Assembly (NCBI GenBank): GCA_040389905.1
Contig: JAZJZK010000030.1
Location: 1 to 64,000, forward strand
Length of the DNA stretch: 64,000 nucleotides
Origin: Gemmatimonadota bacterium
GTDB taxonomy: Bacteria > Gemmatimonadota > Gemmatimonadetes > Gemmatimonadales > Gemmatimonadaceae
Reading direction: 5' to 3'
Shown here one piece after another: positions 2,137 to 49,471 of the stretch. Position numbers and translations under genes: made by a program. The first letter of the stretch is position 1. Every line of letters starts with the position of its first letter. The notes below the pieces were generated by a model. It had not been told where the DNA came from. It saw only the letters and a list, made by a program, of their open reading frames with translations, and ran no database searches.

Positions 2137-2189
2137 GCACAAGACGACATGCGAGGCCGGTCAGATTTTACATTCACTTGGGGAACTGC

Positions 2190-5885: not shown

Positions 5886-5939
5886 GAGTTACGTCCACGT
5901 GATTTCAACCTCCACCTCGTTGTCACAGAAGGAGCGCGG

Positions 5940-8057
5940 ATGAGGAACGGGTTCAAACGTGTTGAAATCATGCCACAAGCCGCAGCTGCGGGGGCGCGAT
6001 ATGGGAACGCGGTTGCGGGGCCCTTACTCGGACTAGTAGCGGCCTTGAAAAGCCATCCGGCGAGCAAGGGCGTGGACTACGAGACGTACACGCACGCCCG
6101 AGATCCTAAGTTCAGGACCGCACGTCTGACAGATTCCCTGCGCGCACTGATCTGGCAGCTCGATGGCGAGACGCTGCTCGTGTGGGACGTCGCGACCCAC
6201 GAGGAAGCGAAGCGACAGTCCGCTAGAAGCATCTGTCGCGTCAGCGCGCTCACCCAGAGCCTTGAGATCTGCATGGTCGACGAACGCGTGAGTGACACAG
6301 AGCGGAATACGAAAAGCGGTAGCCTTCGGCCGCTCGTTCCACCAAACGTCTCTGACGCCGACCTGCGTAGGATGGGCCTTTCTGACGACATGATAGCGGT
6401 GTCGCGCGGAATCACTGATTCCGAGTCCATCGAAGCATTGGCGCGGCTACTACCCGCCTGTCAGAAGCAGCTCTTGGCTGTCAGGATGCTGGCTGACGGC
6501 GAGTCGCCAGAGATCGTTTATCGCGAGGTCGCGGCGCTTCCAGACTACATCCCTGATCACACCGACTACACCAGCGCGCTGGTGCGCTCGATTCGTGACG
6601 GTCGGCTGGAGGTACTCGCTTCTGAAGAGCAGTTGTCAAATGCCCTGCTAATGCCTTGGGAGGCCTGGAAGTCCTTCCTGCTTCCCGAACAGCGATCGGT
6701 AGCTTATGCGCCAAGGTACAATGGACCAGTTCGGGTAACGGGTGGGCCGGGAACTGGAAAGACAGTCGTTGCAATCCATCGCGTTCGGGCACTGGTGGAC
6801 GGACTTGGGCTCCTACGCGTGGGACAGCCAATTCTGTTGACGACCTATGTCAAGACACTCGTGGATCAACTCGCAGAGATGACATCGGCGTTGCTCGGTG
6901 CGGAGTCGACTGGTTTGGTGCGAGTTGTTGGGATCGACAAGCTGGTGAGCGAGCTACTAAAGCACGGATTGCATTCGTCGCGCGGGTTTGCCGTACTAGA
7001 CGACGCCGGCATCGACTCCCGAATTGGGGCGATGCCGTACGACGCACAGCTGAACATGACCCCACAGGAGATCCGTAAGTTCTGGGAGAACGTGTTGCTG
7101 GCTATGGTCGTACCATCCTGGGACGAATATCAGCGCCTCCGAAAGCGCGTTCGCGGCGTCCGCAGCGTCAACCAGGGTCTCTTCACGCAGCTGGTCAGGT
7201 TGGCCGAGGCACTGGAAACGCAGCTCGTCAAAGAGCGAAAAACGACTTTCCTGCTGCGGGTGCGCGATTGCTTGGACCTGCCAGCGGTGGGCAATGTAGG
7301 GTACCAACACGTCGTCGTAGACGAAGCCCAAGACATGCACCCGTTGCACTGGCGGCTTCTTCGGCGACTGGTTCCGTCGCAACCAAACGACATCTTTCTG
7401 GTCGCTGATGCCGACCAGCGGCTCTACCGAACGCCATTCCCACTCGCGTACTGTGGCGTCGACGTCACGAACCGCACGAAGCGCCTCAAGAAGAGCTATC
7501 GCTGTAGCATGGCAATCCTCACCCTCGCGAATCGACTCTTGGAGGGAGTGCGAGCCGAAGATCCGGATGATGACGGGAGCGAGCGCGGAATAGCGGCTTC
7601 CTTGTTCAGTGGCCCGGAGCCACGACTCAGTGGGCTTGCCGACCACGCTGCCGAGTATGAAGGGTTGGCCAACCGCCTGCTGGAATGGCACACGAATGGG
7701 ATCGCGTGGCCAGAAATGCTAGTGATGTGTCCGACGAACGCGCGCTGCAGTGAAGTGGTTACGCGACTGGCAACTCGGGGCGTCCCGGCTGGCGCCGTCG
7801 GCACAGTAGGTGTACTGACCGGTTCCGTTCGCGTAATGACCATGTATCGGGCTAAGGGGATGGAAGCAAAGGTGGCTGCCGTCATTGGAGTCAGCGCAGC
7901 AGAAATGGGGACGGCAGGTTTCGCAGTAGATGAGCTGGAACGAAAGCGGCACGTGCTGTTCGTCGCGTGCACGCGCGCGCGTCAGGACCTCTACGTGTCT
8001 TGGTCCGGTGAGCGGAGCTCGCTGCTAGCGCCTCTCTTTCATGAAGATGGGGGTTGA
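5940..8057 (+). CDS. UvrD/Rep-like SF1A helicase with an N-terminal RelE/ParE-like domain
   Basis: VTGGPGTGKT, VVVDEAQD, ADADQRLY, KSYR, TMYRAKGME, LFVACTRAR. N-terminus RTARLTDSLRALIW...LLVWDVATHEEA resembles the RelE-like fold. Confidence 0.85.
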   Translation: MRNGFKRVEIMPQAAAAGARYGNAVAGPLLGLVAALKSHPASKGVDYETYTHARDPKFRTARLTDSLRALIWQLDGETLLVWDVATHEEAKRQSARSICRVSALTQSLEICMVDERVSDTERNTKSGSLRPLVPPNVSDADLRRMGLSDDMIAVSRGITDSESIEALARLLPACQKQLLAVRMLADGESPEIVYREVAALPDYIPDHTDYTSALVRSIRDGRLEVLASEEQLSNALLMPWEAWKSFLLPEQRSVAYAPRYNGPVRVTGGPGTGKTVVAIHRVRALVDGLGLLRVGQPILLTTYVKTLVDQLAEMTSALLGAESTGLVRVVGIDKLVSELLKHGLHSSRGFAVLDDAGIDSRIGAMPYDAQLNMTPQEIRKFWENVLLAMVVPSWDEYQRLRKRVRGVRSVNQGLFTQLVRLAEALETQLVKERKTTFLLRVRDCLDLPAVGNVGYQHVVVDEAQDMHPLHWRLLRRLVPSQPNDIFLVADADQRLYRTPFPLAYCGVDVTNRTKRLKKSYRCSMAILTLANRLLEGVRAEDPDDDGSERGIAASLFSGPEPRLSGLADHAAEYEGLANRLLEWHTNGIAWPEMLVMCPTNARCSEVVTRLATRGVPAGAVGTVGVLTGSVRVMTMYRAKGMEAKVAAVIGVSAAEMGTAGFAVDELERKRHVLFVACTRARQDLYVSWSGERSSLLAPLFHEDGG

Positions 8058-8855
8058 AAGCTGCGAAGGCCGCGTAACCCGAGTAGTCCCAGCAGGTGAT
8101 TCGCGTCAATTCGAGGAGCTTCTCGAGCGGGTAATAGCCAACCGCATGCTGGGCGCCACGAACAGACGGGGCTCGCGGTAACGCGAGAAAAGTCCCGCAG
8201 TTGGAGTCGAATTGCGACAGTGTAAGTCGGTTCCGACCACACGGAGGGCGTGCAACTCGTCGCGACTGAGACGGATCGCATCGGAAGGAGCGCCAGACTG
8301 CCGGTTCTCCCAATTCATCAACTGCTGGTATAGTGTCGTTCTGAGCCGAGTGGGCGCGCAACCGGGTCTACGGACGAACCGAGATCGCGAATCCGATGCC
8401 GCTAGGACTGCTCGCTCAGTATCAGGCTGCGACGCGTTGCGAAGCGGCGAATAACCATCGACTCTCGAGAACCCGCCACTGCTGGCCCTCTCTGCGGCAC
8501 ACTCAAGTTGCATAGCCATCGGTCAGTCTGGGATACAGCAGAAAACGCCTTCGGCTCGCCAATGGATCGCGCTATGTCATACCGAACGAGGTCCATCGTG
8601 TCCAGACGCCTTTGGTGACCGGGCCGAAAGGAATCGGAGCGACGCCCGCACGCCGGCGGCCGTTATTCGACGGAACAGCAAAATCAGCGCACGGAACACT
8701 GCCGGTCATGTTGACGCGCGCCGTGCTACTAGGCAAGTGAAGTACAAGGGGACTCGCGCGACAATGACTTGCAAACAGAGCCCTTCTGAGCATATTGACG
8801 CGTCGAGCGAAAACGCTCGGACCCCACCGACGCACGCGTCATCACGGAGCCGCTT

Positions 8856-9611
8856 GTGAATCGTCGACACACCGCCATCGCAACTGGCAAATCGCAGGCA
8901 CTCATCATCTACCTAATCGATGTCAGTGGGTCGATGAAAGACAAGTTTGAAACGGCCCAGAAAATTGACTATGTGAATCAAGCACTCGAGAACATGCTGA
9001 CCGTCATGGTTCAACGCAGCATGCGAGGTGAAGTCATTTCTCCGCGCTATCGCATAGCGATGGCGGCGTACGACCACACCGTTACGGACATCTTGGACGG
9101 TGTGCGCGACATTAACTGGCTGGTGGAGAAGGGTAATCCAACCCTGTTGCCTTCCAGAGGTACGACGGAGACGGCGCTCGCATTTCGCTGGGCTCGTGAC
9201 CTGCTCCGTGCGGAATTGCCTGCGATGAAGGGGTGTCCAGCACCGATGATCTGTCATCTCACCGACGCAGAGTTTACCGGTGAGGATCCACAGCCAATCG
9301 CCGAAGAGATCATGGCGATGGGTAACGATGATGGCGCCGTCTTGATTGAAAACATTTTTATGGCTCCCGGATTGACACGAGACCCGATAGGTGATTTGGG
9401 GCGATGGAAAGGTGTTTCCCGCGACCAGCTATCAAGCGACTATGGTCGTAAGCTCTGCGATATGTCCTCCTCTCTCCCAGAGACTTATGCTCGGATGATG
9501 GCTTCAGAGGGCTACGCACTCGAGGCTGGGCGGCCGATGCTCATTCCAGGCAGCGATAGCAACCTTATCGAACTCGCATTTACGCTTGGCGGTATCACCG
9601 GGGCGGGGTGA
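8856..9611 (+). CDS. vWA-domain protein (TerY-like)
   Basis: MIDAS motif LIDVSGSM, plus GTT and HLTD. First gene of an operon; overlaps the next ORF. Confidence 0.85.
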   Translation: MNRRHTAIATGKSQALIIYLIDVSGSMKDKFETAQKIDYVNQALENMLTVMVQRSMRGEVISPRYRIAMAAYDHTVTDILDGVRDINWLVEKGNPTLLPSRGTTETALAFRWARDLLRAELPAMKGCPAPMICHLTDAEFTGEDPQPIAEEIMAMGNDDGAVLIENIFMAPGLTRDPIGDLGRWKGVSRDQLSSDYGRKLCDMSSSLPETYARMMASEGYALEAGRPMLIPGSDSNLIELAFTLGGITGAG

Positions 9612-11785
9612 TGTGCGTGATAGAAACCGTAGTCGAGCCTGACGCAGACGAGTTTGAACTGCGGGCTTCACAGACCAGCGGAAGGAATCAGTTTGCATCG
9701 ATAACGCTCGCTGTGAAGGATCACGACCTTCGCGTACACCTCGGTTATCGGCGATGCTTGGTATTCGACGCGGATGATCGACCTGGTCAGGATGCCGGAG
9801 TGATAAAGGGTGACGCGACTCACGCGGTGGCCGTCATCGCGGATGGCGTGGGCCAGTCCTACTTCGGCAATTTGGCCTCCTCCTACCTGAGCGAATGGCT
9901 CTTATCGGTACTTTGGCAGCGACGACATAGTCCACCGACTGAGGAGGAGTTCGTGGTCTCGCTACGTGAACAGGAGAAAGTGTTTGCGCCTACGGTGGAC
10001 GACTGTTCTCATACTGTGCGAAGTCGGCTTCACCAGGCGGCACTCGATAGAGCGAGAGCCAAGGGCTCGCAGACCGTGTTCGCTGCGCTATTACTCGACG
10101 TGGTCACTGCTGAATGTCATCTGTATCAGGTCGGCGATGTTAAGGCAATTGTGTTTCTAGAAGACGGGAGCTCGCAAGACGTCGATTCGGATGCAGCGGG
10201 CCGCTGGTCGAGTAAGGGCAGGACTGCCCTTTGCCTTCGGCACACGAAGGTGTCAAGAGTCTCGCGAATCGTGCTAAAGACCGACGGCGCGTCAGCAGAC
10301 TGGGGCAGATCCACGAATGCACTCGCGAATGATGCCATTGCTTTCGACATGATGGCGGCGGCTTGCGCACCAGATGACGATGTCGCTGTTGCGCAAATTG
10401 CACTCGCGCGGGCAACCGTGCCAGCGGGGTCAATGCCTTCGACTGCGCCCTTAGTCGTCCGTCCTGCGCACTCGCTTGATGAACCAACCACTGTGCCGTC
10501 CGCGCCGCTTTCCGACTCCACTGAAGGTACGGAGGAGGAGCGCTGTGAACTCGAAAGAAGTGCGGCCGACTGTTCTGAAGTATCCGTGCAAGGTGACTAC
10601 AAACCGGTGGCGGGATGTGAGGAAGACACTGCTTCGGGAGATGAAGTCGCCCACATGTCGACGCAGCTAGGTGGAGGGGCGGAACTGGGAGGTAGCATAT
10701 CTGGGGAGGACGCGCGCGAGATTGAGCAGGCGTGTCCGCATTCAGACGCGAGCGCGGGAGCAGCGACCGCTGACCGACCTGAGGCCCACTCTACACCCTC
10801 ATCCACGCCGGAGGCTGCCGACGCCGAAACGAAGGGCGAGGCTTTTGAGTGCGGAGGTGCTCCCCTTGTCCCGCAGCCCGAGGCGAACTCGGATCCACGC
10901 GGCACCGGGGAGTATGAGAGCGAACCTTCTCGTCAGCAAATCGAAACGAATGTACGATCGGAGGCGGAAGGCGGTGAAGCGCACGCGCGCGACGGCGCGG
11001 CAGCACCAGCGTTGCCGCAGGCTCATGCAAGCGATCCAGAGTGTGCTCAGGAGCGCGCGAGTGAAGCTGCTGAGGATCTTGCGCGGCCTGCCGAACAATC
11101 GGAGGAGGACATCAAGTCAGACGCAGGCGTTGTTGACACAGCCGCTGTGTTCACGCAGGCTGATGCGAAAAGAGTTATTTCACAAGCGCTACTCGGGGCT
11201 CTCTTATGCCTCCTGATTTGGGTAACAACCAGCGCTCCAGGCAATTGGCAAGAATGGAGTGGCTTGCGGAAGATACCCGCTGCTGCCGTCGAGCCGCAGG
11301 GCAAGCCACCATTTCAGGAACCTCGCGATGTAAGGCCGGTTGACACTGAGCCGAGCGCGCCGCTGCCTGATACGACGATGCCGGAAGGCGGCATTGTCAG
11401 CGGAACGGAAGCAGGCGCGCTTCTAAGTGTAAGAGCCGTATCGCGACAGGAATGGTTAGCGAATGCTGGTGCGAGGGTTTCCGCCGAGCGCCAACTGGCT
11501 CTGGAACGGATGCCCGAAGCGATGCTGTTTGACATTGCAATTCGCGACAAGCGCGTTACGCATGTGAATGTGACTGCCGCTGATGGCATCGCTATCGATG
11601 CGGCGACTTTCGCGATAGGTGATTCTGGCAACGTGTTTGTTGCTGCCGTCATGCCGATCGAGGAGCGACGGTTGCAGCACGTGCGCATCAATCTGTTGAA
11701 TCAAGGCTCTACGATAGCGTCGAAGGGGTACACGCTTCGGAGAGGCGGAAAATATCGTCTCTCGGTCGCGGCACCGACAAACTAG
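9608..11785 (+). CDS. PP2C-like Ser/Thr phosphatase with acidic linker, transmembrane helix and C-terminal extra domain
   Basis: GQD, AVIADGVGQS, QVGD, KTDG and DDDVA motifs; ~250-aa E/A/S/P-rich linker; TM segment ALLGALLCLLIWVT. Confidence 0.8.
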   Translation: MMCVIETVVEPDADEFELRASQTSGRNQFASITLAVKDHDLRVHLGYRRCLVFDADDRPGQDAGVIKGDATHAVAVIADGVGQSYFGNLASSYLSEWLLSVLWQRRHSPPTEEEFVVSLREQEKVFAPTVDDCSHTVRSRLHQAALDRARAKGSQTVFAALLLDVVTAECHLYQVGDVKAIVFLEDGSSQDVDSDAAGRWSSKGRTALCLRHTKVSRVSRIVLKTDGASADWGRSTNALANDAIAFDMMAAACAPDDDVAVAQIALARATVPAGSMPSTAPLVVRPAHSLDEPTTVPSAPLSDSTEGTEEERCELERSAADCSEVSVQGDYKPVAGCEEDTASGDEVAHMSTQLGGGAELGGSISGEDAREIEQACPHSDASAGAATADRPEAHSTPSSTPEAADAETKGEAFECGGAPLVPQPEANSDPRGTGEYESEPSRQQIETNVRSEAEGGEAHARDGAAAPALPQAHASDPECAQERASEAAEDLARPAEQSEEDIKSDAGVVDTAAVFTQADAKRVISQALLGALLCLLIWVTTSAPGNWQEWSGLRKIPAAAVEPQGKPPFQEPRDVRPVDTEPSAPLPDTTMPEGGIVSGTEAGALLSVRAVSRQEWLANAGARVSAERQLALERMPEAMLFDIAIRDKRVTHVNVTAADGIAIDAATFAIGDSGNVFVAAVMPIEERRLQHVRINLLNQGSTIASKGYTLRRGGKYRLSVAAPTN

Positions 11786-11790
11786 CCACA

Positions 11791-13134
11791 TTGAGTGAAT
11801 TTGTGTCACAAAGATTTCGCCCAAAGCCTAACGATGTTCTCGAGCTGTTCGGAGAAGAGTACGTTGTGCAGGCGCATGCGGCATCTCCTAACTTAGTGCA
11901 CGCAGCAGAGGGGAAGGCCGCGCGTGTGTACAAGGTGCGAAGCGGCCAGGGAAGCATCTATGCTCTAAAGGTGTTCAAAGCTCAATTTCGCAATGCCGAG
12001 CTTGTTGAGATGGCGCTGCGACTTGGGGCACTCAAGCACGTCGAAGGTCTTCAAGCTGCCGAACGACGAGTGCTGACGGGTAGCGACGACGCAGTGGCGC
12101 GATTCGCGGAGCTTCAGTACGCGATGCTGATGCCTTGGGTTACAGGGATCACATTCAACGATCTGCTGATAGTAGCCGGTAAGGCCGGCCACCTGTATGA
12201 CACATCAAGTGCGCTGCGCTTCGGGCGACGCTTTCTGAGTGTCATGAGTGAAATCGAGAAGGCGCGCATTGTTCACGGGGACGTCGCACCCGGAAACGTT
12301 ATGCTGAACATGAAATCGGGGAGAGTAGAGCTGCTCGACCTGGAGGACATCTACATGCCAGGTCAGAGGGCGCCGGAGCAGCTCCCTGTGGCAACAGCTG
12401 GATACAATCACCCGGCACCTTCTCTTGGGAACAAATGGACGGCCTCCGCTGATAGGTACGCCACGGCAGTTCTCGCGGCGGAAATCCTCTTGCTTTCGGT
12501 TCCCGAGCTTGCAATCGAAGCGACCGATGCCGGCGTCTTCCTGGGAAACCGAACAACGGCGCAAGGCGAGTTGCGATTTGCCCGCTGCTCGCCAATACTC
12601 CGGTCAATCGCGCCTGAGTTCGCCAACAGATTTGAGCACGCGTGGAACGCGCAGTCTCTTGATGCATGTCCGCCCATCGCGGTGCTGCGGAATGCGTTGA
12701 ACGCGGCGCGGCTCAAGCCCGTTGCGCACCCGGAGAGCCCGTCTCCTTCGCAGGCTCAGGTGTCTTGGACTCCGAATGCAAGACAAAATCGGGTCGAGAG
12801 TCAGCACCTTGCCTCCGCGATTGGCACGCGCTCCGGTGCGCCCGTGCCGAGGCATGCAGGGGTCGAGTGGCGCCAAGCAAAAGAACCCGTTGCAGATAGT
12901 CTCAATACATCTGGAAGCGTCCCGATCGTGAACGTACCTTCTGCCGCACCTACCGTGTGGGCGCCTAGCGTGCCCGCCGCCGTCGCACCAACGCCTACTC
13001 CTGCAGTCGCGACGCCCGCTGTCGCACACAGCATCCCGACGCGCTACCGTTGGTGGGTGCCGGTCTCGATTGCACTCGTCTGGATTGCGCTGGTAGGCGG
13101 TGCGCTGGGCTGGTACCTTTCGACGGTGATGTAG
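11791..13134 (+). CDS. Ser/Thr protein kinase with Pro/Ala-rich tail and C-terminal TM anchor
   Basis: EGKAARVY, YALKVFK, HGDVAPGNV, LLDLED; C-terminal WWVPVSIALVWIALVGGALGWYL. Confidence 0.85.
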   Translation: MSEFVSQRFRPKPNDVLELFGEEYVVQAHAASPNLVHAAEGKAARVYKVRSGQGSIYALKVFKAQFRNAELVEMALRLGALKHVEGLQAAERRVLTGSDDAVARFAELQYAMLMPWVTGITFNDLLIVAGKAGHLYDTSSALRFGRRFLSVMSEIEKARIVHGDVAPGNVMLNMKSGRVELLDLEDIYMPGQRAPEQLPVATAGYNHPAPSLGNKWTASADRYATAVLAAEILLLSVPELAIEATDAGVFLGNRTTAQGELRFARCSPILRSIAPEFANRFEHAWNAQSLDACPPIAVLRNALNAARLKPVAHPESPSPSQAQVSWTPNARQNRVESQHLASAIGTRSGAPVPRHAGVEWRQAKEPVADSLNTSGSVPIVNVPSAAPTVWAPSVPAAVAPTPTPAVATPAVAHSIPTRYRWWVPVSIALVWIALVGGALGWYLSTVM

Positions 13135-13157
13135 TTCCCCCGCTCCGAGGCTTCGTC

Positions 13158-14954
13158 ATGATACGTTGCCGAAAGTGTGACCGCGAACTGGATTCTGCCT
13201 CAGCGGCTTGCGCTGGGTGCGGTACCGTGGTTCCTGCACCCGACGGCGGCGCAGTGTCTTGGCGACCGTTCAAGCCACGAACGAGTCCGCACACTATCGC
13301 TGGCGGCGATGCTGATCTGCGAGTCTCACCGTCTGCTCCAGGATCGTCCTTGAAAACAGTGATTCAGTCGGGAGGAGGCTACTCTCCGGGGCCGGACGCG
13401 TCCAAAAGTGCGCCTGTAGTGTCGAGTTCTCAAAAGGGCGACGCGCCAGCAGACGGGGTGCACTGGAAACCTCGCACTGCTCGCGCACACAATTCATCCT
13501 TGTTGTCAAAAGCCGACCCTCTCCCTGACGATGCGCCACCAGCGTCGCAGAAAGATGCATCATCTGGTAGTCGCGATAGTCTAAAGCCCAAGAATGACGG
13601 TGCGCCCCGCCAAGGCCTGAATGCCGCATCGTCCAATCGAGCGCCGAAGGGCCTATCCCTCAAGTCGCGCCGGATATTGCCGTGCGGTCACTCCCGTCAG
13701 TTACTTGATTTGGTAGACAGTGACTTCGACGTCGTGTGCCCTGATTGTTTCGGTCACTTCTTCGAGTATGCCTTTGTTCCGTACACCGTGTTCGTAGGTC
13801 TCTTCGCTGGCAGCTACTTTTGGCGCCCGCTTGCTTTGCAGAACATGCTGTTCGTGATTCTCGCCCTTTTTTGCATGTGCTATGTTGGGGCGATTCTGCG
13901 CCATCGGCGCAGTCGGCTTCTCACTGCAATGGCGGTGTTTGTGCCGGTTGCATTGCTAGTCTTGGAGCGAGCGGTTAGCGGCGAGATACGGCTCGACGTT
14001 GTAAGCGGTCGGTCATTCGTCGCTCTCAGCGTTCTCGCGCTGGTGCTGCTTGTCGCTTTCGGGCGAGGGGTAGGAACGATCTTGTCAGACCACGCGGAGA
14101 AGGGGGCGTTGCTCCTTTCGGTCACGCTGATACTTAGCATAGCCTCGTCGATTGTGAGCTTGGCGATGAACATAGGTGCCGCTGTGGTTCCCAGTTTGCA
14201 GTCGTATCCGAGTTTTGCCGCGCTACTCGGAATCCTCAACCGTATTCAGACCTATCGACTAGCAGCAGTCGTACTGGCTCTCGGAGTAGTTACGCTGTGG
14301 GCGGGAGGTCTCGCGGTGAACGACGCTAGGGAGAGTATTGGGACAGATCACAGGCCCCTTCAACACTCATTCTGGCAGGAAGTGCGTCGTCTTGCGTTGT
14401 TCTTCCGGCTTGTGGTGGTCCAGATAGTCCAAAGGGTGCTTCAGACTTTTCGGAAGACTCTCCATCATCTGATTGTGGCGGCCGCCAGTAGCCTTCGAGT
14501 GATCCTTCTCATCGCTAGCGCGACGGGTGTGTCCGTTGCGCTTTACCGAGTTGCCATGCTGACGGCTGCGATCTGGGAAAACGAGTTCTTCTTATTGCAA
14601 GACGCTTGGTCGCTACTCGGGCTGGCGTACTGGATCGGCGCCACGTGGGTCACCTGCTGGGCATTTATCGTAGTCGCATTTGTCGGAGATCTTCGGAACG
14701 AGGCGTCCGGCCTCCAGGCTCACGCGGTGCATACCTCGTTGATTATCAGATACAATTTCTTGAGATCCACGCCAATCTATTGGTTCTACCTGTCGTTGGT
14801 GATCTTCGCATCTTGGTTCCTGGTATCTGCGGCGCGGCTGTTCATTCACCCGGATGCGGGTATGCCGCTCGGGGTTGTGTTTGTGACATATTTGGTACTG
14901 GTAACGTCTTTCGGTGTTGTTTGGACACGAGGAATTGCGCCTACGAAGGCCTGA
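13158..14954 (+). CDS. Zinc-ribbon plus disordered region plus polytopic membrane protein
   Basis: ATG at 13158 after GAGG; N-terminal CRKC...CAGC; second Cys cluster CGH...CPDC; ~10 hydrophobic segments. Confidence 0.7.
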   Translation: MIRCRKCDRELDSASAACAGCGTVVPAPDGGAVSWRPFKPRTSPHTIAGGDADLRVSPSAPGSSLKTVIQSGGGYSPGPDASKSAPVVSSSQKGDAPADGVHWKPRTARAHNSSLLSKADPLPDDAPPASQKDASSGSRDSLKPKNDGAPRQGLNAASSNRAPKGLSLKSRRILPCGHSRQLLDLVDSDFDVVCPDCFGHFFEYAFVPYTVFVGLFAGSYFWRPLALQNMLFVILALFCMCYVGAILRHRRSRLLTAMAVFVPVALLVLERAVSGEIRLDVVSGRSFVALSVLALVLLVAFGRGVGTILSDHAEKGALLLSVTLILSIASSIVSLAMNIGAAVVPSLQSYPSFAALLGILNRIQTYRLAAVVLALGVVTLWAGGLAVNDARESIGTDHRPLQHSFWQEVRRLALFFRLVVVQIVQRVLQTFRKTLHHLIVAAASSLRVILLIASATGVSVALYRVAMLTAAIWENEFFLLQDAWSLLGLAYWIGATWVTCWAFIVVAFVGDLRNEASGLQAHAVHTSLIIRYNFLRSTPIYWFYLSLVIFASWFLVSAARLFIHPDAGMPLGVVFVTYLVLVTSFGVVWTRGIAPTKA

Positions 14955-38218: not shown

Positions 38219-38424
38219 AACTGACGTACGAGGTACCCGGAACCGTGTACCCGGACTGGCATCCAACCCAAGAAGAGCCATCGACACGGTCGATCGCATC
38301 GACCCGACGCCAAACGCCGTCCCGAGGTTCGAGGACGGCGTTCTTCGTGACACCACTCTCGATGGCTCCTTTTGGCCGTTATGCCAGTCAGGGTACCGGA
38401 GCCCGGGTCCTTCGTACGTCTGTT
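38219..38424. repeat. ~206-bp long palindromic repeat / MITE-like element, copy 1
   Basis: Ends AACTGACGTACGAGG...TTCGTACGTCTGTT; homologous to 49240-49451. Confidence 0.8.
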
Positions 38425-41415: not shown

Positions 41416-41958
41416 ATGACAGACGCGACCGCCGCGCAACCGTTCCCCAGTGACGAAGTACTGATCGAACGACTTCATGACGACGTCGTCATTCCGCGCC
41501 GCGCGACAGCGGGGTCGGCAGGGCAGGATCTCCACGCCTATTTGCGAGGCCGATCGGTTCGCACGTCAGATGGCACGCAACAGTCCGACGTGCCGGCGTC
41601 CGAGCTGGATGGGAGTTGGGGAGTGACCCTCCAGCCGCGAGAGATGGCCCTCATCCCCCTTGGATTTCGCACGCGTATGCCACACGGAATCGAAGCGCAA
41701 ATCCGGCCGCGCAGTGGTCAAGCATTCAAGAACGCGCTGACCGTTCCGAACGCGCCCGGGACCATCGACGCCGACTATGCGGAGGAGTGGATGGTGATTG
41801 TACGAAACGATGCTCCGGTTGCGCGGCGGATCATCCACGGGGAACGGATCGCGCAGGTGGTCTTCGCGCGTTATGCGATGCCGGCGTTCGTTGACGGCTC
41901 CGTTTCCCGCACGACCGAAAGGGAAGGGGGTTTTGGAAGCACAGGGACGGGACGCTGA
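41416..41958 (+). CDS. dut: dUTP diphosphatase
   Basis: SAGQDL, QIRPRSG, NAPGTIDADY, GERIAQ, REGGFGSTG. Confidence 0.95.
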   Translation: MTDATAAQPFPSDEVLIERLHDDVVIPRRATAGSAGQDLHAYLRGRSVRTSDGTQQSDVPASELDGSWGVTLQPREMALIPLGFRTRMPHGIEAQIRPRSGQAFKNALTVPNAPGTIDADYAEEWMVIVRNDAPVARRIIHGERIAQVVFARYAMPAFVDGSVSRTTEREGGFGSTGTGR

Positions 41959-41963
41959 AACAA

Positions 41964-41997
41964 AGAGCGGCAGAGCCCGCGAAGGCTCTGCCGCTCT
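41964..41997. terminator. Intrinsic terminator hairpin, probably bidirectional
   Basis: Perfect 14-bp stem AGAGCGGCAGAGCC / GGCTCTGCCGCTCT just after dut; T-rich tail on the minus strand. Confidence 0.85.
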
Positions 41998-41999
41998 CT

Positions 42000-42138
42000 A
42001 TCGTCAACGTGGTCCCAGCCCTGTTACCTGGTGCTCACGAAAACGAAACCGGACCGCAAGACCGCCGATCCGCGTAAACCGTTGAAAGTTAACGGGTTAC
42101 GGTGATCTTGCTGGTCCGAGGCTGACTAGACAATTGAT
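42000..42138 (-). ncRNA. Displaced 3' half of a putative structured small RNA (integration target)
   Basis: Nested inverted repeats CGGACC/GGTCCG, GCAAGA/TCTTGC and CGTAAACCGTT/AACGGGTTACG; ends at the terminator; homologous to 48285-48350. Confidence 0.5.
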
Positions 42139-42329
42139 GAAGTTCAAACTCATTCCATAATCATTACAAGAGGGAATAAGAGGGTTTAATATGATATGAT
42201 TTTGGTTCTAAACCATTGTCAAACAATAACTTATTGCAATTCGAAGTAAACATTTTGTTGGGATACGGCAAGCTCTAGGAACATTCTGAGGGATTCATGT
42301 ACAGCAGATCGTACACGACAAAGTGTAAC

Positions 42330-42358
42330 TTGACAAATGTACATAAATGCTATATATT
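42330..42358 (+). promoter_or_regulatory. Sigma70 promoter of the integrase (probably leaderless)
   Basis: TTGACA (42330-42335), 17-nt spacer, TATATT (42353-42358); ATG at 42365 falls at the expected start site; no SD. Confidence 0.7.
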
Positions 42359-42364
42359 TAGCAC

Positions 42365-43561
42365 ATGCCAAGAAAGAAGACACGTCACCACCGACCGAAG
42401 AACGGGGCAACGTTTTATGTAAACCGTCGATTTCCGCAATACGGCGTTCCACGGCTGTGCCGGTCAAGCGGCACAAACGACGAAAAGGTGTTTGACGACA
42501 TCCAACGCCTGCTCGACCAACTCGGACAATTGGGAAGTCCGGAGGCAGCAAAGATCATCCAAGGGATTCACAAGAAGCGACTTACCTTCGTCGATGCCCT
42601 TGGCGCGCACCAAGGTGAAGGCCGTCAGGGCATTATCAGGCTCGCTGAAGATGATGCTCCCATTGACGAGCGGTCCTTCCAAGCTTGGCTGGCAGTGCAC
42701 GACGTAACCCAAAGCACTCGAACTTCATACAGGAACGCCTTCAAAGCGCTGGAAAAATTCGTGAAATCCGGCGACACGATGAAATCGCTTCCCGCCGTGC
42801 TCGGGCGGTATCGGGATGACTGTGTGAAGCTCGGGAGGAACCGTAGGGCCTTCGACATCGCGCTCGCTGTCGCGCAGGCATGGGTCAAAAAAACAATCGG
42901 CCCGGCCTCAATGCCCTACCGCGACGTGCGGCTCGTCCAGCGGTTCAACGACAAGCCCGATGCCCGAAAGAGCAAGTACTTCAGCCCCCGTGACATCATG
43001 AATATTGCGCAGAGGCTCCCGGCACCGCTGGATGACGTCCTCTTCGCGACCGCATCTTATGGAACCAATCCGAAAGAGTATTTCAGCGACGGGTTCACGG
43101 TGACACCGGATGGCGTTGAAATTCATGGAGAGAAATCCAAGCACCGGAAGCGCATAGTTCCGCTCCTTCGAAATTTTCCGCCCGTAATACCGCCAGCATG
43201 GATCAATTATCGAAGATGGTGGCGGTATGTGACAATGGCATCAAATGGAGAGATGCTTCCTGACGATGCAAGGAAGTCATTTGCGCGCTGGATGTCAGAG
43301 GCGGGTATCCCCTTCAACCGCGCCGAACAATATCAAGGTCACGCTGAAACCACGCAGACGGCGACGTATTTCTATCACGTTGCGACGGCGGGACAATTGA
43401 GAACAGATGGGCTGCTCCTCAACGATTGGATCAAAAAGAACCTTGAGCAGGAGCCCCCGAATCCAGCTGGGCGAGTCATAGCAATTCGCCCGCGCGACGC
43501 AAAATACGAAAAGGGGATGCTGGTCCGGCCGCCGAAGCGAGCGTTGTGGCGGGAGGAATAG
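42365..43561 (+). CDS. Tyrosine recombinase/integrase, divergent catalytic motifs
   Basis: STRTSYRNAF core-binding helix; YGTNPKEY (box I), GEKSKHRKRIVPL, PDDARKSFARW (box II), QGHA, TATY; adjacent to the att repeat. Confidence 0.8.
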   Translation: MPRKKTRHHRPKNGATFYVNRRFPQYGVPRLCRSSGTNDEKVFDDIQRLLDQLGQLGSPEAAKIIQGIHKKRLTFVDALGAHQGEGRQGIIRLAEDDAPIDERSFQAWLAVHDVTQSTRTSYRNAFKALEKFVKSGDTMKSLPAVLGRYRDDCVKLGRNRRAFDIALAVAQAWVKKTIGPASMPYRDVRLVQRFNDKPDARKSKYFSPRDIMNIAQRLPAPLDDVLFATASYGTNPKEYFSDGFTVTPDGVEIHGEKSKHRKRIVPLLRNFPPVIPPAWINYRRWWRYVTMASNGEMLPDDARKSFARWMSEAGIPFNRAEQYQGHAETTQTATYFYHVATAGQLRTDGLLLNDWIKKNLEQEPPNPAGRVIAIRPRDAKYEKGMLVRPPKRALWREE

Positions 43562-43621
43562 GTGAAAGCCGAGCAACCCCTTTCATCATTAATTCCACCT
43601 GAACTGTAGAGGCGACCACAA

Positions 43622-44098
43622 GTGCCGGAATTAAGTGTTTATCGCGGCGCAGTGTACTGGATGATTTCTGATTATGGATATCAAACCTTGAACGAACCGG
43701 GCGACGCGGATAATGATATTCGCTTTCAATGCACCGCTAAGTCAGGGCGCTCCTATCGATCCCAATTTCTGCTATATCCAATCCAGCGCATTGCTAGAGT
43801 TGTCATTCATTTTGACCTGAGATATCACCCGAACCGAAGACTGTTCTTTGCGGAGGTAGTGCACCGTCTCAATGATTCCGTCGCTGTGCTCGGACATTTT
43901 GAATTTCACTGGGATTCCGGTCAGACGAGTTTCGTCTTTGGTGCCGAGGTGACGGACCCTGATCCCGAAACATTTGCGACGATGATGAATCGCTGTGCTT
44001 ACGCCATTGAGGTATGGGAGGCGGCGTCAGGATTCTTTAGCGGCAGACTCGGTGCGGACGGTGTCGTGTCCGTCGCTCAGATGTTGACAGAAGTCTAA
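43622..44098 (+). CDS. Hypothetical protein, possible YbjN/T3SS-chaperone-like fold
   Basis: 158-aa ORF; EVVHRLND...GHFEFHWDSGQTSF resembles the YbjN pattern. Confidence 0.5.
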   Translation: MPELSVYRGAVYWMISDYGYQTLNEPGDADNDIRFQCTAKSGRSYRSQFLLYPIQRIARVVIHFDLRYHPNRRLFFAEVVHRLNDSVAVLGHFEFHWDSGQTSFVFGAEVTDPDPETFATMMNRCAYAIEVWEAASGFFSGRLGADGVVSVAQMLTEV

Positions 44099-44189
44099 TG
44101 GGAATATCATATCATTTTGTTGCCGGAATCCCGAAAGCAGAAGGGATATTTTGGCGGTCGTATGCTTGGTCGGAATGCTGAATGATCCT

Positions 44190-44429
44190 TCAGAGTTCCG
44201 GCAGGAAATACGCTATCGGTTTTCGGTACGCCACGGCCAAATCGCAAAGTTCCACAGGGTCAATTCGAATTTCTCCCTGTTCGATCTTCGAAATGCGGCC
44301 TTGTGTAGTTCCGAGCCGTCCCGCGACCTGTACCTGAGTCAACCCAGCAGCCAAGCGGGCTTCACGGAGTTTGCGGAGCATCTCCCGGTATCGCGGATCG
44401 TGAATTGACCGGGGTTTTCGAGCGGGCAC
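44190..44429 (-). CDS. XRE-family HTH transcriptional regulator
   Basis: LREARLAAGLTQVQVAGRLGTTQGRISKIEQGE. Confidence 0.9.
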   Translation of the reverse strand: MPARKPRSIHDPRYREMLRKLREARLAAGLTQVQVAGRLGTTQGRISKIEQGEIRIDPVELCDLAVAYRKPIAYFLPEL

Positions 44430-44543
44430 GGGCGGGTCGGTGAAGGACCCGCTGAAGATTTATTCCGTTTGCGAATACTCCGAATAAGAATAATATTGCG
44501 GGCCGCTCGTGGTTCACTCCGCACCCCTCCAACACTCCACACA

Positions 44544-44816
44544 ATGCCACGCACCATCATCGCACTCGCCTTCACGATGGCAGCCTGTGCGAATTCATCT
44601 CGCCGAGAAGTTCAAGTTGACCAAATCACGGCGGCCTGCGAAACGAGGGAGCAGCTCAAGGCGTATCAAGGGTTCCACCGCATCAATGATGGCTGCGACT
44701 TCCTTGGGCTGAGTAGCGGCACAGTCACCGGGAAGCTTGCGGACCAAGGCGACACCTGGGCGAAGGTTGAGATAGGTGGTCGGACTGTCTACGTAAGCCG
44801 AAGCGCAATTCACTAA
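44544..44816 (+). CDS. Small lipoprotein with an SH3-like C-terminus
   Basis: [15 protein letters not shown] lipobox; [17 protein letters not shown]. Confidence 0.6.
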
Positions 44817-45550
44817 CCCACAACCGGCAAGTTCTCATGAAGAAATGCCCATGGTGTGCGGAGGAAATACAAGATGCAGCAATCCTGTGTCGATATTGTG
44901 GGCAAAGTACACTTCCGCAGAATATGCCGCCGAGTCCCGCGACCACGGCAAGTACAACAACGGCTTCCGATCACCAACCTGCCCCGGAGTACCCAGCAGA
45001 TCCAGATAGCGTGAAACGCCGGCTGGGAGAGTTCGGTGGATCAATCGCAGGGGAATGCCGTGCATGCACGTACAAGGGTCAGATCGGAGTGGACACTACG
45101 AACATCGGACCCTTCGCCGGATTGGGCCTTCCTGTGTTTTTCTTTGCGTGGACGTCTCTTGGACTTTTCATGTCGCTATTCCTTGGAGCGTTGACATCCA
45201 TCGTCATGATTCTGGTCAAAGGCACCAAGGTTGTAACGTGCCCTCAGTGTGATCGCGCCAGCACTGTCGCAGTACATGTTTCGCACTATGCTATTCCAAT
45301 AGACGCGTTAGCCCGTACGCCAAGTGCCAGATCATAGCTGGTCAGGGGCATTGTTGAACCAACCGATTGCCGGGAACCTTGCGGACCAAGGCGACACTTG
45401 GGCGAAGGTTGAAATAGGTGGACGGACCGTGTACGTAAGCCGAAGCGCAATTCACTAACCCACGACCGGCAAGTTCTCATGAAGAAATGCCCGTGGTGTG
45501 CGGAGGAAATACAAGATGCAGCAATCCTGTGTCGATATTGTGGGCAAAGT
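44728..45550 (+). repeat. 181-bp direct duplication (44728-44908 and 45370-45550)
   Basis: Ungapped near-identical copies 642 bp apart, covering the lipoprotein 3' end, the spacer and the first 24 codons of the zinc-ribbon genes. Confidence 0.92.
44837..45337 (+). CDS. Zinc-ribbon (UPF0547-like) membrane protein, copy A
   Basis: [23 protein letters not shown]-terminal CRAC-hydrophobic hairpin-CPQC. Confidence 0.8.
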
Positions 45551-45895
45551 TCCCGACCGCAAGACATGCCATCCACGCATCCCTCGGTAGCGGCAGGGAT
45601 GGCCACGGGCATACGCGATGCCACAGGCAAACTGAATTGGAACAAAGTAGCAGAGCAAATGACACGGTGTATCCATTGCCAGTCAATGGACACTGGGGTC
45701 AAGTACACCCTCTGGCATTGGCTCGTCGGAATCGGCTGGTTCCCGATCGGAACCGTATTCGCCATGTTGTTTCCAGCACGGCGCTGCAATGAATGCGGGA
45801 AGTGTTTCGGTCCAGCATACGAAGGAATGAAGACAGTGGTCACCCTTTCGCTGATTTGCCTATCCTTGCTCGCCATCTTCATATTCGTCATTTGA
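45479..45895 (+). CDS. Zinc-ribbon (UPF0547-like) membrane protein, copy B
   Basis: Identical N-terminus; different C-terminus CIHC-hydrophobic-CNEC plus a terminal TM. Confidence 0.8.
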
Positions 45896-46086
45896 TGATA
45901 TGAAGCGAGGCCCCAAGGCAGACGGTCTTTTTCTTAGTGGCCAAAGACGCTGGAGAAAGCCTCATGGTGCGCGCCGGATAAAACAATATCGGAGCCATAT
46001 TGTTATGCTGGACGCCTTCCGCCAACCACCGACAAATCCCGGCATCGCTCCTATTTATGGATTGACCCATAAATTGGAGAATTATC

Positions 46087-46305
46087 ATGCAGGATCAATT
46101 ACTTACGACAGCAGAAGTGTGCGAAATATTCCGTTGCAGCGAGCGTAGTGTTAACAGGATGGTGGCGGATGGAATTCTGAACCCTCTGCGTTTGCGGGGG
46201 CTGGTTCGTTTTCGGCAGTCGGAACTCGATGAATTGATTGAGGCGCTTGACTTGAACCCGGATGAATGTCAGTGCGATGGCCAGTGTGAATGCGTGAAAG
46301 AGTAG
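46087..46305 (+). CDS. Excisionase-like MerR/AlpA-type HTH protein
   Basis: LLTTAEVCEIFRCSERSVNRMVADGILNPLRLRGLVRFRQSELDELI; GGAG SD. Confidence 0.85.
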   Translation: MQDQLLTTAEVCEIFRCSERSVNRMVADGILNPLRLRGLVRFRQSELDELIEALDLNPDECQCDGQCECVKE

Positions 46306-46387
46306 TGCAGGTCACAGGCCCTTGATCCAACTAAAAACGTTCAACCGCTGTCTGCCACGTCGGTCTCTCATGCAGGTACAAAAGTGA

Positions 46388-46427
46388 AAAGCTCCCCATC
46401 CGGCTTTGCTGCCGGGGGGAGCCTTTT
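46388..46427. terminator. Possible bidirectional terminator between xis and the polymerase gene
   Basis: AAAAGCTCCCC...GGGGAGCCTTTT hairpin with A/T tails. Confidence 0.55.
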
Positions 46428-46503
46428 GTATCACAAATAGCTTACCTGAACACTATAAAGGGTAACGGAAGAAGTTATGATATTGTTGGGCGCCCTTTCC
46501 ACT

Positions 46504-47928
46504 TCATAGCTGTTCCCCCTTCAACCTCAATCCAATATCAAAGGCAAATGCCTGAATGGATGATTTACTGAGTGAGTGTTCAAGAAACGCTATATCAAAC
46601 GGTTCTTTCGAGATCCATCCGTCATGCATTGGTACAAGAATATCTGAACGGTTGGCACAGCATATGTTCAACGCCCAAGCTTCGTATCCCAGCATGATGA
46701 AGGACAAGAGTCTCTTGCGGGGGTAATTCTTGCCGTCTGATTTCCGCAGGGGGTGAATCTTTCCGGCAGCGTTCCTGACATGGGTGAATCTCCTTCCCGT
46801 TCGAACCCTGTGGGCATTTATGAGTGTTTTCCTTGCTGACCGAATTTCGAGTTGAATCATGTGATAATACGGGTCGGCTAGGATGCGCTCGGCTCCCAAT
46901 TGTCCGGCAATGTCTACAAGCGTGGAGTATTTTCGATGTGAGGAACGACGGACTCCAAAGAAGGCTGCCAAGATTACTATTTTCACCTTGTCCTTCGAAA
47001 TCATCCATCTCCCGGAAAGCTCCTGCTGTCTTTCGGACAAGTGTGTGAGATAGTCACGAATGACGCACACGGGCCTGCCATAGTGTTTCCCAAGGCTGAA
47101 GAACAGTGATGGATGACATGCGTTGAAGTCATAGTTCCACCAGCCAGTATCTTTATACAGTTTCGCTCGTGCGCCCCGCTCCATGCGTTGAAGGGAACAT
47201 TCCCCGAGTCCCATGAGCCGCCCGGGGCCAGTGTGCGGCTCGCTCTCGGGTTTGAAGTCATGGTATAGGTTCGGGACGCCCCCCGCGACGCGAATCCATT
47301 GGCGGACCTTGTACAGCGAACGCAGCCCTTCCACGGACTGGTTCGACGCTCGCGATGCCTTCGCTGCGATTTCTGCCTCAAAATCAGCAATCAGCGTGTC
47401 CACCCGCTGCGTGTCAAACGGAATCACGGATGGAACACTGAATTGAAAAAATGATGTCCGGAGAATGCCATCAGCGGGGAAGTGCTGTGCGCCCGATTCC
47501 CACGCAATGCTAGCGGTCTTGTCCCGCCAACAATCTGTAAGGAGTATCTCGACAGGGCGGCACAGAAAATATGCTTTTGTATATCGCCCCTCCTCGTACC
47601 CGTCGTCCCCATCCGGGAAATGCCACAGATTCCGGAGATACTTCTTGTAGTCTGACTCGCTGCCCCCAAGATGTTTCCTCAACCTGCGTTCGATGAAGCT
47701 CGACCCACGGGCGATTTGCGGTCCAATATGGTGTGCTGCCAAAGCGGATGGGATTGGGTGCGTGTGCGGGCGGGAGAGGAAGTACGACATGTTCAGATAC
47801 TTCACGAGATGTCGCACTTTCCGATCTATTTCCCGCTGTCGCTTCATCTGGGCGCGTACGTGGGCCTCCACGAAAGCGTCAAGCTCGGGGAGTCGCAGTC
47901 GTGGTGCTGCTTCGAGAACAGTGGACAT
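46504..47928 (-). CDS. Stand-alone family-A/T7-like (TV-Pol-like) nucleotidyl polymerase
   Basis: GRL...SLQRM...R pre-motif, motif A YDFNACHP, motif B KDKVKIVILAAFFG, LLSFIMLGYEA, motif C VPMHDGWI; no exonuclease or helicase domain seen. Confidence 0.75.
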   Translation of the reverse strand: MSTVLEAAPRLRLPELDAFVEAHVRAQMKRQREIDRKVRHLVKYLNMSYFLSRPHTHPIPSALAAHHIGPQIARGSSFIERRLRKHLGGSESDYKKYLRNLWHFPDGDDGYEEGRYTKAYFLCRPVEILLTDCWRDKTASIAWESGAQHFPADGILRTSFFQFSVPSVIPFDTQRVDTLIADFEAEIAAKASRASNQSVEGLRSLYKVRQWIRVAGGVPNLYHDFKPESEPHTGPGRLMGLGECSLQRMERGARAKLYKDTGWWNYDFNACHPSLFFSLGKHYGRPVCVIRDYLTHLSERQQELSGRWMISKDKVKIVILAAFFGVRRSSHRKYSTLVDIAGQLGAERILADPYYHMIQLEIRSARKTLINAHRVRTGRRFTHVRNAAGKIHPLRKSDGKNYPRKRLLSFIMLGYEAWALNICCANRSDILVPMHDGWISKEPFDIAFLEHSLSKSSIQAFAFDIGLRLKGEQL

Positions 47929-47958
47929 AAAAAAACCTCATACGGTTAGGGTATGAGG
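47929..47958 (-). terminator. Terminator/attenuator hairpin directly before the polymerase start codon
   Basis: Minus strand reads CCTCATAC-CCTAACC-GTATGAGG-TTTTTTT-ATG; the GAGG SD lies inside the stem. Confidence 0.7.
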
Positions 47959-48250
47959 AGCCGTCGTACTGAATGTGCTTCGCTGATAGGGGTTACTCCC
48001 GATCGTTCCAGCCGCTCGCTACGTCGCCTCCAACATGGTTACCATTGCACAAAGCATCATTCGGGCAAAATCGTCAAGGGGTCTTCAATCCCGCCAATTC
48101 AAAACATGATTTTGAGCTTGAAGGGACGGATGCACCCCGACGAGCGGGAACTATCAATACTAGAAACGACGAGAGCGACAGCAGGCCCGATGCCAACTGT
48201 CGCTCTCTGTCATTGTGACGGTTTCCGGCCCTGTGCACAGGAATCCGTAC

Positions 48251-48400
48251 ATCAATGTTTCGGACTAGCTCAAGGCCAATCCTACGTAAGCCGTTGAAAG
48301 TTATAAGCTTACGGTGACCCTGAAAAGCCGAAAATGACTAGACAATTGATCACCTCCTTCGTTTCGGGGTTGTACTTGAGGGCGAACGGAATCTCATACT
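48251..48400 (-). ncRNA. Putative chimeric structured RNA at the right att (host 5' half plus element-supplied 3' half) containing AAGGAGGTGATC
   Basis: Perfect 12-nt SD at 48348-48359, followed by nested stems ATCAA/TTGAT, TTTCGG/CCGAAA, TCAGGGTCA/TGGCCTTGA, CGTAAGC/GCTTACG. The 5' end is not determined. Confidence 0.5.
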
Positions 48401-48478
48401 CAAATTGAAACGTAGAGTTCCTTGGCGCAAGCGTCAGCGGAGAATTTCCGAGCGCGCCCAAGAGCTCAACTGGAGCAC

Positions 48479-49231
48479 ATGCCGAACAAATCGATCTCCG
48501 CGTTGAAAGCCGACGCCAGAAGCTATTGGACGCTCAGCCGCTCTCATCGCTACAGTCTGCTGTTTGCGTTGCCGCTGCTGCTCCTCTACGAGTTCCTCGA
48601 AGCCGTTGCACCCGTGCGAGAGCGCGGCGGCGTGGTGCGGAATGGCGCGGATGTCGTGCTCACGGGCTTGTCCACCTGGCTGATCGGCCCGCGCGGACCC
48701 CTGGTCTTCATGGGGATCGTGATCGGCGTATCGCTCTGGCTCATTTATCGAGATCGCGGCGCGGGCCGCGTTCGCGTCAGCATGTTCGGTGCGATGTTTG
48801 GCGAATCGGTCGTGCTCGCGCTTGTCTTCGGGCTGGTCGTCGGCATGGTGACCGTCCAGGTCCTTGGTCCCTTGCGCGCGTTGGCGGCTGGCGGCGCGGT
48901 GCCCGGATCCTCTATCGCGCGACTCACGCTGTCGCTCGGCGCGGGGCTGTATGAGGAGCTGCTGTTTCGCGTCGTCATCGTGGCGCTGCTGGCTAATGCG
49001 TTCCGCTTGCTCGGCGCCGGGCGCCTCTCGGCCGGCATCGTGGCCACAGTCATCGGCGCGTTGCTCTTCTCGGCGTTTCACTATATCGGCGCACTGGGCG
49101 ATCCGTTTACGCTCGAGTCGTTTGTGTTCCGCGCTATTGCCGGGCTGGCGTTTAGCGCACTGTATCTCACGCGTGGTTTCGGCATTACCGCGTGGACGCA
49201 CGCGCTCTATGACGTGGCGGTACTGATGTAG
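48479..49231 (+). CDS. CPBP (CAAX/Abi) intramembrane metalloprotease
   Basis: GLYEELLFR, LFSAFHY, AWTHALYD; GGAG SD before ATG 48479. Confidence 0.9.
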   Translation: MPNKSISALKADARSYWTLSRSHRYSLLFALPLLLLYEFLEAVAPVRERGGVVRNGADVVLTGLSTWLIGPRGPLVFMGIVIGVSLWLIYRDRGAGRVRVSMFGAMFGESVVLALVFGLVVGMVTVQVLGPLRALAAGGAVPGSSIARLTLSLGAGLYEELLFRVVIVALLANAFRLLGAGRLSAGIVATVIGALLFSAFHYIGALGDPFTLESFVFRAIAGLAFSALYLTRGFGITAWTHALYDVAVLM

Positions 49232-49239
49232 GTCCCTTC

Positions 49240-49451
49240 AACAGACGTACGAGGTACCCTGAACCTGGTACCCGGATTGGCATCCAACCCAGAGGAGCCA
49301 TCGACACGTTCGATGGCATCCTACGCTCCGCAGGGGCCAGCTTGGGCCGCGTGTGAGGCAAGACGTTCGTAGTGCGACACAGCCATCTATGGCTCCTCTC
49401 GGCAAGCGGGCCAGTCCGGATACCAACGTCCTGGTACCTCGTACGTCAGTT
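49240..49451. repeat. ~212-bp long palindromic repeat / MITE-like element, copy 2
   Basis: AACAGACGTACGAGGTACC...GGTACCTCGTACGTCAGTT; homologous to 38219-38424; sits between convergent genes. Confidence 0.8.
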
Positions 49452-49471
49452 GTATGGTTTCGGCGAGGGTT

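Follow-up and report, generated by a model that had tools for sequence, protein, structure and literature searches.

What a small integrated element might do with a stand-alone polymerase as its only candidate replication gene is the question raised by a 6.2-kb island (42123-48350) in a 64,000-nucleotide stretch of a Gemmatimonadota genome (assembly GCA_040389905.1, contig JAZJZK010000030.1, positions 1 to 64,000; hereafter the window). The first-pass annotation of the window, made from the letters alone, had proposed here a little-described class of integrative element built around a PolA/T7-like polymerase, an atypical integrase and a structured-RNA target. The class itself is not new, as in 2008 Iyer, Abhiman and Aravind already described helicase-free elements in which a TV-Pol is combined with an integrase of lambda type, a resolvase or a transposase (PMC2579912). 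We find that the island is a genuine integrated element, that it is probably a variant of this class, and that its right end would restore the small host unit that it splits.

An integrated island between dut and CPBP

The island is flanked by perfect 16-bp core repeats, as the first-pass annotation had noted, and, allowing 0 or 1 mismatch, the core has no further copy in the genome of 5.08 Mb (Table 1). Homology between the ends extends far beyond the core, which is nested in a 66-nt ungapped repeat (77% identity), itself nested in ~185 nt of gapped homology. G+C content is 0.53 in the island and 0.64 in each flank. The empty dut-CPBP site anticipated in relatives was found in genome G747, where 66/66 bases left of the core, the core itself and 19/20 bases to its right lie between the two genes; among the loci listed, L010, L018 and L012 (G012, unpublished) likewise have dut and CPBP separated by a short unit alone.

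The polymerase matched none of the 54 other genomes of the genus searched, and this rarity points to a recent, rare insertion. At this target no second island was found, since in G151 and G368 the additional pattern match fell in unrelated sequence by chance, and the G005, G750 and G747 regions hold the RNA unit with no integrase or polymerase match. Convincing arm-type repeats were absent from the element (a single shared 9-mer). The assembled contigs of one DNA run, which contains the stretch and is possibly its source, cross both attachment (att) sites without an attP or attB joint, although such contigs drop rare variants and are silent on excision and copy number.

A split host unit and its replacement

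The target is a conserved unit on the minus strand in which a promoter-like pattern and a short leader precede an extended Shine-Dalgarno (SD) sequence and a TTG-started open reading frame (ORF), followed by a long hairpin and a terminator. The promoter-like GGAAC-N17-GT, which we take to be ECF-sigma-like, is present in 23/29 units examined, and the SD and ORF in 26/29 relative loci (one is cut at the SD, two lack them). Of these 26 ORFs, 21 are 14 codons long, one 15 and two 21, and two are cut off at the locus edge. A sequence model of the unit (R1) matched 47 of the 54 other genus genomes, two copies on one contig occurring only in the genome studied here, and the exact core pattern is found in 83/400 family genomes (vs. 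4 control matches); copies in relatives were taken from L002-L030, L041, L093, L095, L097 and L099. The anti-16S match in the unit is unusually long. Neither Rfam at gathering level nor ARAGORN returned anything on the 64-kb window, so that by these tools the target is no known tRNA, tmRNA, 6S or SRP RNA, and a literature search found no publication on it. The structured-RNA target of the first-pass annotation is supported as an RNA-like unit, and from sequence comparison it is likely a conserved, unannotated small-RNA/short-ORF gene.

Its most similar described family is CC2171 (Rfam RF01867), an expressed small RNA (sRNA) to which the accessible text of the source (bioRxiv 2022.01.24.477521) assigns no role. 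Both have an extended SD, a near-identical start context, a similar length and a terminal terminator, and the best genome-wide match to CC2171 is the restored unit described below. However, the matches score 19-27 bits against a gathering cut-off of 75 in a search that also rings weakly in 10/14 control genomes, and the internal structure is unlike. We thus consider the unit a candidate new sRNA/short-ORF family, distantly CC2171-like.

Insertion has cut the displaced host 3' part off from its SD and promoter: no GGAGG lies upstream of its core, and the 66 nt preceding the core are identical to the G747 empty site. At the other end, host promoter, leader and SD adjoin a diverged, element-borne replacement of ~180 nt, which retains the hairpin and the 14-codon length of the ORF with an altered peptide. 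The long hairpin folds at -37.2 kcal/mol in the host copy (z -5.0) and -28.1 kcal/mol in the island copy (z -3.95, both against mononucleotide shuffles), and the island's terminator region has a z of -5.0. Compared by hand from the folds, the two hairpins differ by about four pairs changed on both sides and by a weaker upper stem in the island copy; a consensus fold by RNAalifold from a plain MAFFT alignment lacked the long hairpin and so did not establish covariation.

The right end of the island would thus restore the split unit, and apparently the island must do so. Because the replacement preserves the length and the fold and changes the peptide, what seems to matter is the RNA or its translation rather than the peptide. 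Restoration of a split target is a known rule for tRNA and tmRNA islands (Islander, PMC4383910), in which, in the accessible part of that account, the target is split by a tyrosine integrase and made whole by sequence of the island, with the displaced fragment at the other end. The present case follows the same plan and differs in its target, neither tRNA nor tmRNA, and in a ~180-nt, diverged replacement that changes the peptide and keeps the fold. An unannotated target with a long, structure-keeping replacement is what is new here.

The integrase, the polymerase and their relatives

The left-end integrase is supported by its PHROG 1 match and by a structure model that matches XerA and lambda Int, with the arm-binding, core-binding and catalytic domains of the Int fold (the N-terminus being modelled as a three-stranded sheet, likely arm-binding). 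It is also atypical, as had been stated: N235 stands at the first catalytic Arg and D300 at the His of HxxR, with K257, R303, H326 and Y335 retained. These substitutions, together with the lack of the island in 54 other genus genomes, would fit an island that integrated once and is now trapped, its integrase inactive and its genes persisting without selection. Yet every ORF is intact, the cores are perfect, and the first Arg is retained in only 5/15 members of the integrase's clade (L077-L090, L098), the HxxR His in 2/15. Since ten of the 15 members share the loss of the Arg and four of these adjoin tRNA genes, it is a trait of the clade rather than decay of this copy, and we regard a trapped island as very unlikely. 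The position of the four Arg-less members also suggests that the clade is functional; several clade members have tRNA-Gln, -Asn or -Leu as neighbours. The second novelty here is an integrase whose catalytic set is reduced and whose clade mostly lacks the first Arg too; this would be of mechanistic interest if the clade is active.

The polymerase gene has no PHROG, NCBIfam or PADLOC family match (best Pfam E 0.24), and PDB sequence searches with the protein or its profile returned no polymerase. Its structure model, however, has a confident family-A core, of which residues 146-474 align to Pol I structures, preceded by an N-terminal domain (about 1-140). Within the thumb/palm/fingers core (about 146-474), an anti-parallel two-helix thumb unit (model helices 173-189 and 196-215) lies ahead of an RRM-like palm with two conserved Asp (D267 in 124/124 family sequences, D436 in 123/124), and the Arg of the beta-hairpin is invariant (R237, 124/124). 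K316 in the fingers is invariant too, but the RxxxK motif is missing, Arg being outside the five commonest residues four positions upstream. The steric-gate Glu is lost (His in 109/124). No exonuclease match was found in the 474-aa protein, and the N-terminal ~140 aa give weak winged-helix matches and are modelled as alpha/beta, likely a winged-helix domain.

By its model, the fold is nearer DNA Pol I than T7 RNA polymerase, and its closest structural kin were not T7 or mitochondrial RNA polymerases. The family-A half of the first-pass label is thus retained and the T7 half dropped. A miniature single-subunit RNA polymerase that transcribes the element's genes, its N-terminal domain recognising the promoter, seems highly improbable.

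No co-oriented ORF adjoins the polymerase gene. Just before its ATG lies a hairpin that would cover the likely ribosome-binding site. Comparable hairpins burying the ribosome-binding site are seen in plasmid rep genes under attenuator control; in 15 homologous loci, none was conserved at this place.

The polymerase profile matched 5/400 family genomes. L037 (G220) is an island of 8 kb that encodes two tyrosine integrases and has a 42-bp repeat at tRNA-Ser; G102 has, at tRNA-Leu, an integrase of the island's clade (E 3e-18 to the clade profile), Xis, XRE, cargo and polymerase, its far end being unmapped; and L039 (G066, 927-13567) has a large serine recombinase and a polymerase inside a split Mg-chelatase (comM-like) gene, and also encodes a 1,193-aa protein without family match. 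G350 (unpublished) and G171 hold polymerase fragments, that of G171 in a low-G+C island beside a target-type RNA unit. A single-protein query with the integrase matched 14 family genomes, none of them among the five with the polymerase (it missed G102), and a single-protein search for related loci found no relative. Two pattern scans yielded family loci in 9/25 and 9/51 cases (six of the latter duplicates), and a plasmid search with a distant polymerase member found two Polaromonas plasmids. In phages, tblastn with the polymerase gave nothing, and a pattern scan of viral contigs gave four loci, none with a family member.

Across 17 non-redundant loci (two fragments excluded, neighbours chosen by a longest-ORF rule and a subset scanned), a recombinase lies in the flank of 10 (one weak), RepA_C in 4 and type I restriction genes in 4; an unassigned AAA ATPase occurs in three, and the scanned neighbours gave no match to primase, D5 or DnaB families. 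The first-pass expectation that polymerase and integrase co-occur elsewhere is thus realised in G102, but serine recombinases and RepA plasmids also partner the polymerase, and the integrase-polymerase pairing is modular, i.e., recurrent and freely recombined.

Small RepA_C plasmids with polymerase homologues include L047:37-2497 (pW9NP1), L056:5706-8231, L046 and L053, and in two of these the homologue lies immediately upstream of repA, at 10 bp in pW9NP1 and 48 bp in L056. The L056 contig, 10.9 kb long and bearing a terminal repeat of 77 bp, is probably circular. In Aquisalimonas lutea, a 7.4-kb island of satellite-like layout (L141:3697-11107, at tRNA-Asn, 53-bp repeat) has genes for an integrase and an ECF sigma factor, besides TerS-like and scaffold-like genes and a shortened polymerase homologue. 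ORF030 of Ma-LMM01 (L075:3747-5267) aligns to the polymerase family at a probability of 96.7%, the sole match in that genome, and we infer that it is one of the members named in the 2008 TV-Pol set. Annotated as hypothetical, ORF030 has the complete motif set of the family, RxxxK being absent as in the family; 97-100% identical copies occur in 9 Microcystis phage records, and transposases adjoin it.

The other genes named in the first-pass annotation were recovered as well: a likely XRE repressor and an excisionase-like protein, both with family matches above cut-off, and small membrane cargo in the form of two zinc-ribbon proteins with hydrophobic stretches (Table 1). Among the main ORFs of the element, no capsid, relaxase, primase or helicase came up in Pfam and PHROG scans, in line with the first-pass reading; the sole terminase match is a weak, HTH-level match of the Xis-like protein to TerS (PHROG, E 0.0017), and no ORF of at least 40 aa has a P-loop. 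By these family scans the polymerase remains the only candidate replication gene. Owing to a recent duplication, the two membrane proteins differ but share their zinc-ribbon start, which looks like cassette-style cargo capture. A sigma70-like promoter (42330-42358) matching 11 of 12 consensus positions lies upstream of the integrase. ORFs of 114 aa (47953-48297), 82 aa (45900-46148) and 50 aa (48309-48461) lack family support and were discounted as genes. Outside the island, a REP-like inverted repeat occurs at 49234-49457 and 38219-38424, with 69 BLAST matches genome-wide.

Table 1. Features of the island and its flanks (positions in the window).
Feature	Position	Strand	Basis and remarks
Host dut gene, left flank	41416..41958	+	Pfam dUTPase; adjoins RNA unit in L010, L012, L018, L099
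Displaced host 3' part (14-codon ORF 42089-42133, long hairpin, second hairpin, terminator)	41958..42138	-	R1 match E 4e-32
attL core, 16 bp	42123..42138	.	One of two genome copies
AT-rich spacer, 34% G+C	42139..42364	.	Likely attP arm, candidate origin
Tyrosine integrase, atypical	42365..43561	+	PHROG 1 E 7e-7; Pfam Phage_integrase E 7.5e-5 (below cut-off); structure model
158-aa ORF	43622..44098	+	No Pfam, PHROG, PADLOC or NCBIfam match
XRE-family HTH, likely repressor	44190..44429	-	HTH_31 E 9e-13, HTH_3 E 2e-12, above cut-off
90-aa protein, lipoprotein-like N-terminus	44544..44816	+	Weak SH3_3 E 0.02
Zinc-ribbon membrane protein 1 (cargo)	44837..45337	+	Zn_ribbon_3 E 2e-4; hydropathy peak 2.3
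201-bp duplication of 44728-44928	45370..45570	+	Sequence comparison, 93% identity
Zinc-ribbon membrane protein 2 (cargo)	45479..45895	+	DZR E 1.5e-5; hydropathy peak 3.0
Excisionase-like HTH_17 protein (xis)	46087..46305	+	HTH_17; TIGR01764 above cut-off
Hairpin between A and T runs, separating convergent xis and pol	46387..46427	.	Likely bidirectional terminator; sequence and local fold
TV-Pol-like minimal family-A polymerase (pol), 474 aa	46504..47928	-	Structure model, family alignment
8-bp hairpin and T-run covering likely pol ribosome-binding site just before ATG	47936..47958	-	Possible attenuator
Element-borne replacement 3' part (ORF 48301-48345 completed, long hairpin, terminator)	48155..48334	-	R1 match 48163-48391 E 9e-34
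attR core, 16 bp	48335..48350	.	Sequence; spans SD spacer and TTG start of small ORF
Host promoter (GGAAC-N17-GTA), leader and extended SD of target unit	48351..48420	-	Alignments
Host CPBP (Rce1-like) gene, right flank	48479..49231	+	Family match; present in 54/61 genomes searched

Roles for the polymerase and known polymerase elements

Our preferred reading, held with about even confidence, is that the tyrosine integrase recombined the 16-bp core into the target unit and that the polymerase starts and extends DNA synthesis on a circle excised by Int and Xis under XRE control, with the help of a host helicase. We favour synthesis because of the gene context, the loss of the steric-gate Glu and the primase activity of CcPol-MP as given in the accessible text of PMC10061031 and PMC7581432. 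Sequence and model show the island's boundaries, its empty site, the replacement tail and the polymerase's fold and conserved catalytic residues; the steps that follow are inferred. Relief of XRE repression would let Xis and Int excise the circle, whose formation would join the AT-rich left arm to the right arm upstream of the polymerase gene; the winged-helix-like domain might then bind element DNA and the exonuclease-free core prime or extend synthesis, unwinding being supplied by host helicase and SSB, the protein that binds single-stranded DNA. The element has no transfer genes and would thus depend on a helper phage or on DNA uptake to spread.

The plasmid homologues bear on a different role, that of an accessory, primer-dependent enzyme for gap filling or lagging-strand synthesis that aids a separate Rep or repairs recombination or transfer intermediates, on an island that does not replicate itself. 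Some homologues are carried by small plasmids with a RepA_C of their own, in pW9NP1 and L056 immediately upstream of repA, and the polymerase changes places between tyrosine, serine and resolvase elements; in the parts of the sources available, CcPol alone extends primers only (PMC10061031) and divPolA2 is proposed to work in repair (PMC11348598). Here and in L037, however, the polymerase is the sole candidate replication gene of a bounded island, and it has a dedicated, likely DNA-binding N-terminal domain and has lost the steric-gate Glu. We rate such an accessory enzyme as rather unlikely.

The restriction neighbours raise the further idea that the polymerase is anti-phage or anti-restriction cargo of a small defence island, making, e.g., a nucleic-acid signal or an abortive product on infection. 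Type I restriction-modification operons adjoin the polymerase in 4/17 loci, a polymerase remnant in L041 lies beside an AAA_21/DUF3226 pair, and pipolins are defence islands, at least in the accessible text of PMC11551731. But PADLOC finds no match, the nearest recurring neighbours are core mobility genes (recombinases, Xis/AlpA-type HTHs, Rep), and the restriction neighbourhood was already explained as an integration hot spot in the 2008 paper (PMC2579912), such that we give a defence role little credence.

Returning to synthesis on an excised circle, a bolder version can be put forward, which we hold to be doubtful: the winged-helix and minimal-PolA protein might be a one-protein replication initiator, binding its own origin and priming synthesis without helicase, primase or SSB partner, and such 6-8-kb islands might be self-synthesising, family-A counterparts of pipolins; the island might moreover put its own allele in place of a stress-type, ribosome-binding RNA/peptide gene of the host, via an integrase clade that functions without the canonical first Arg. 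Whichever role applies, the island, small, intact and with exact boundaries and a known empty site, offers a test case in which priming, origin binding and excision are each assayable, and this for the helicase-free TV-Pol elements predicted in 2008, where the accessible literature reports biochemistry for CcPol only. The target unit, unannotated, genus-wide and with its long anti-16S match and 14-codon ORF, is a second lead.

Compared by description with the TV-Pol class of 2008 (PMC2579912), the island shares a stand-alone family-A core of 400-600 aa without nuclease domain and with an extra N-terminal domain, the Arg of the beta-hairpin and both Asp of the palm, recombinases and restriction hot spots in its neighbourhood, the lack of a helicase and homology to Ma-LMM01 ORF030. 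It differs in the missing RxxxK Arg, in an N-terminal domain that is alpha/beta and winged-helix-like rather than the all-helical TV-PolN, in a non-tRNA RNA/short-ORF target and in an integrase without the first catalytic Arg. Sequence and model thus suggest that the island belongs to this class as a variant, the polymerase being called a variant because the strict RxxxK motif is missing.

Among characterized systems, the CcPol-MP/PolA-SSB primases of SCCmec also pair a family-A polymerase with an integrative element, and in the available text CcPol-MP is the sole TV-Pol with shown primase activity (PMC7581432, PMC10061031). CcPol is there described as having no TV-Pol N-terminal domain, requiring an OB-fold partner and adjoining a helicase and a large serine recombinase, whereas scans of the island identified neither helicase nor partner (the 158-aa ORF being compared by sequence only). 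DivPolA2 of tailed phages (PMC11348598) is likewise a divergent PolA that has no exonuclease and whose N-terminal domain is uncharacterised, but, unlike the island polymerase, it is phage-borne beside PolB in the part of that source available; our family profile had no match in its reference genome MG592441, where a blank is weak evidence. Phage satellites (PICI/P4/PLE) carry a primase-helicase or Rep module and helper-hijacking genes, none of which was found in the island by Pfam, PHROG or NCBIfam. Pipolins, finally, are integrase islands marked by their own polymerase, with plasmid forms too (piPolB; PMC5695915, PMC11551731, as far as their accessible text goes), and in this they resemble the island, but theirs is a family-B enzyme with primer-independent synthesis shown, whereas the island's is a family-A enzyme with predicted activity.

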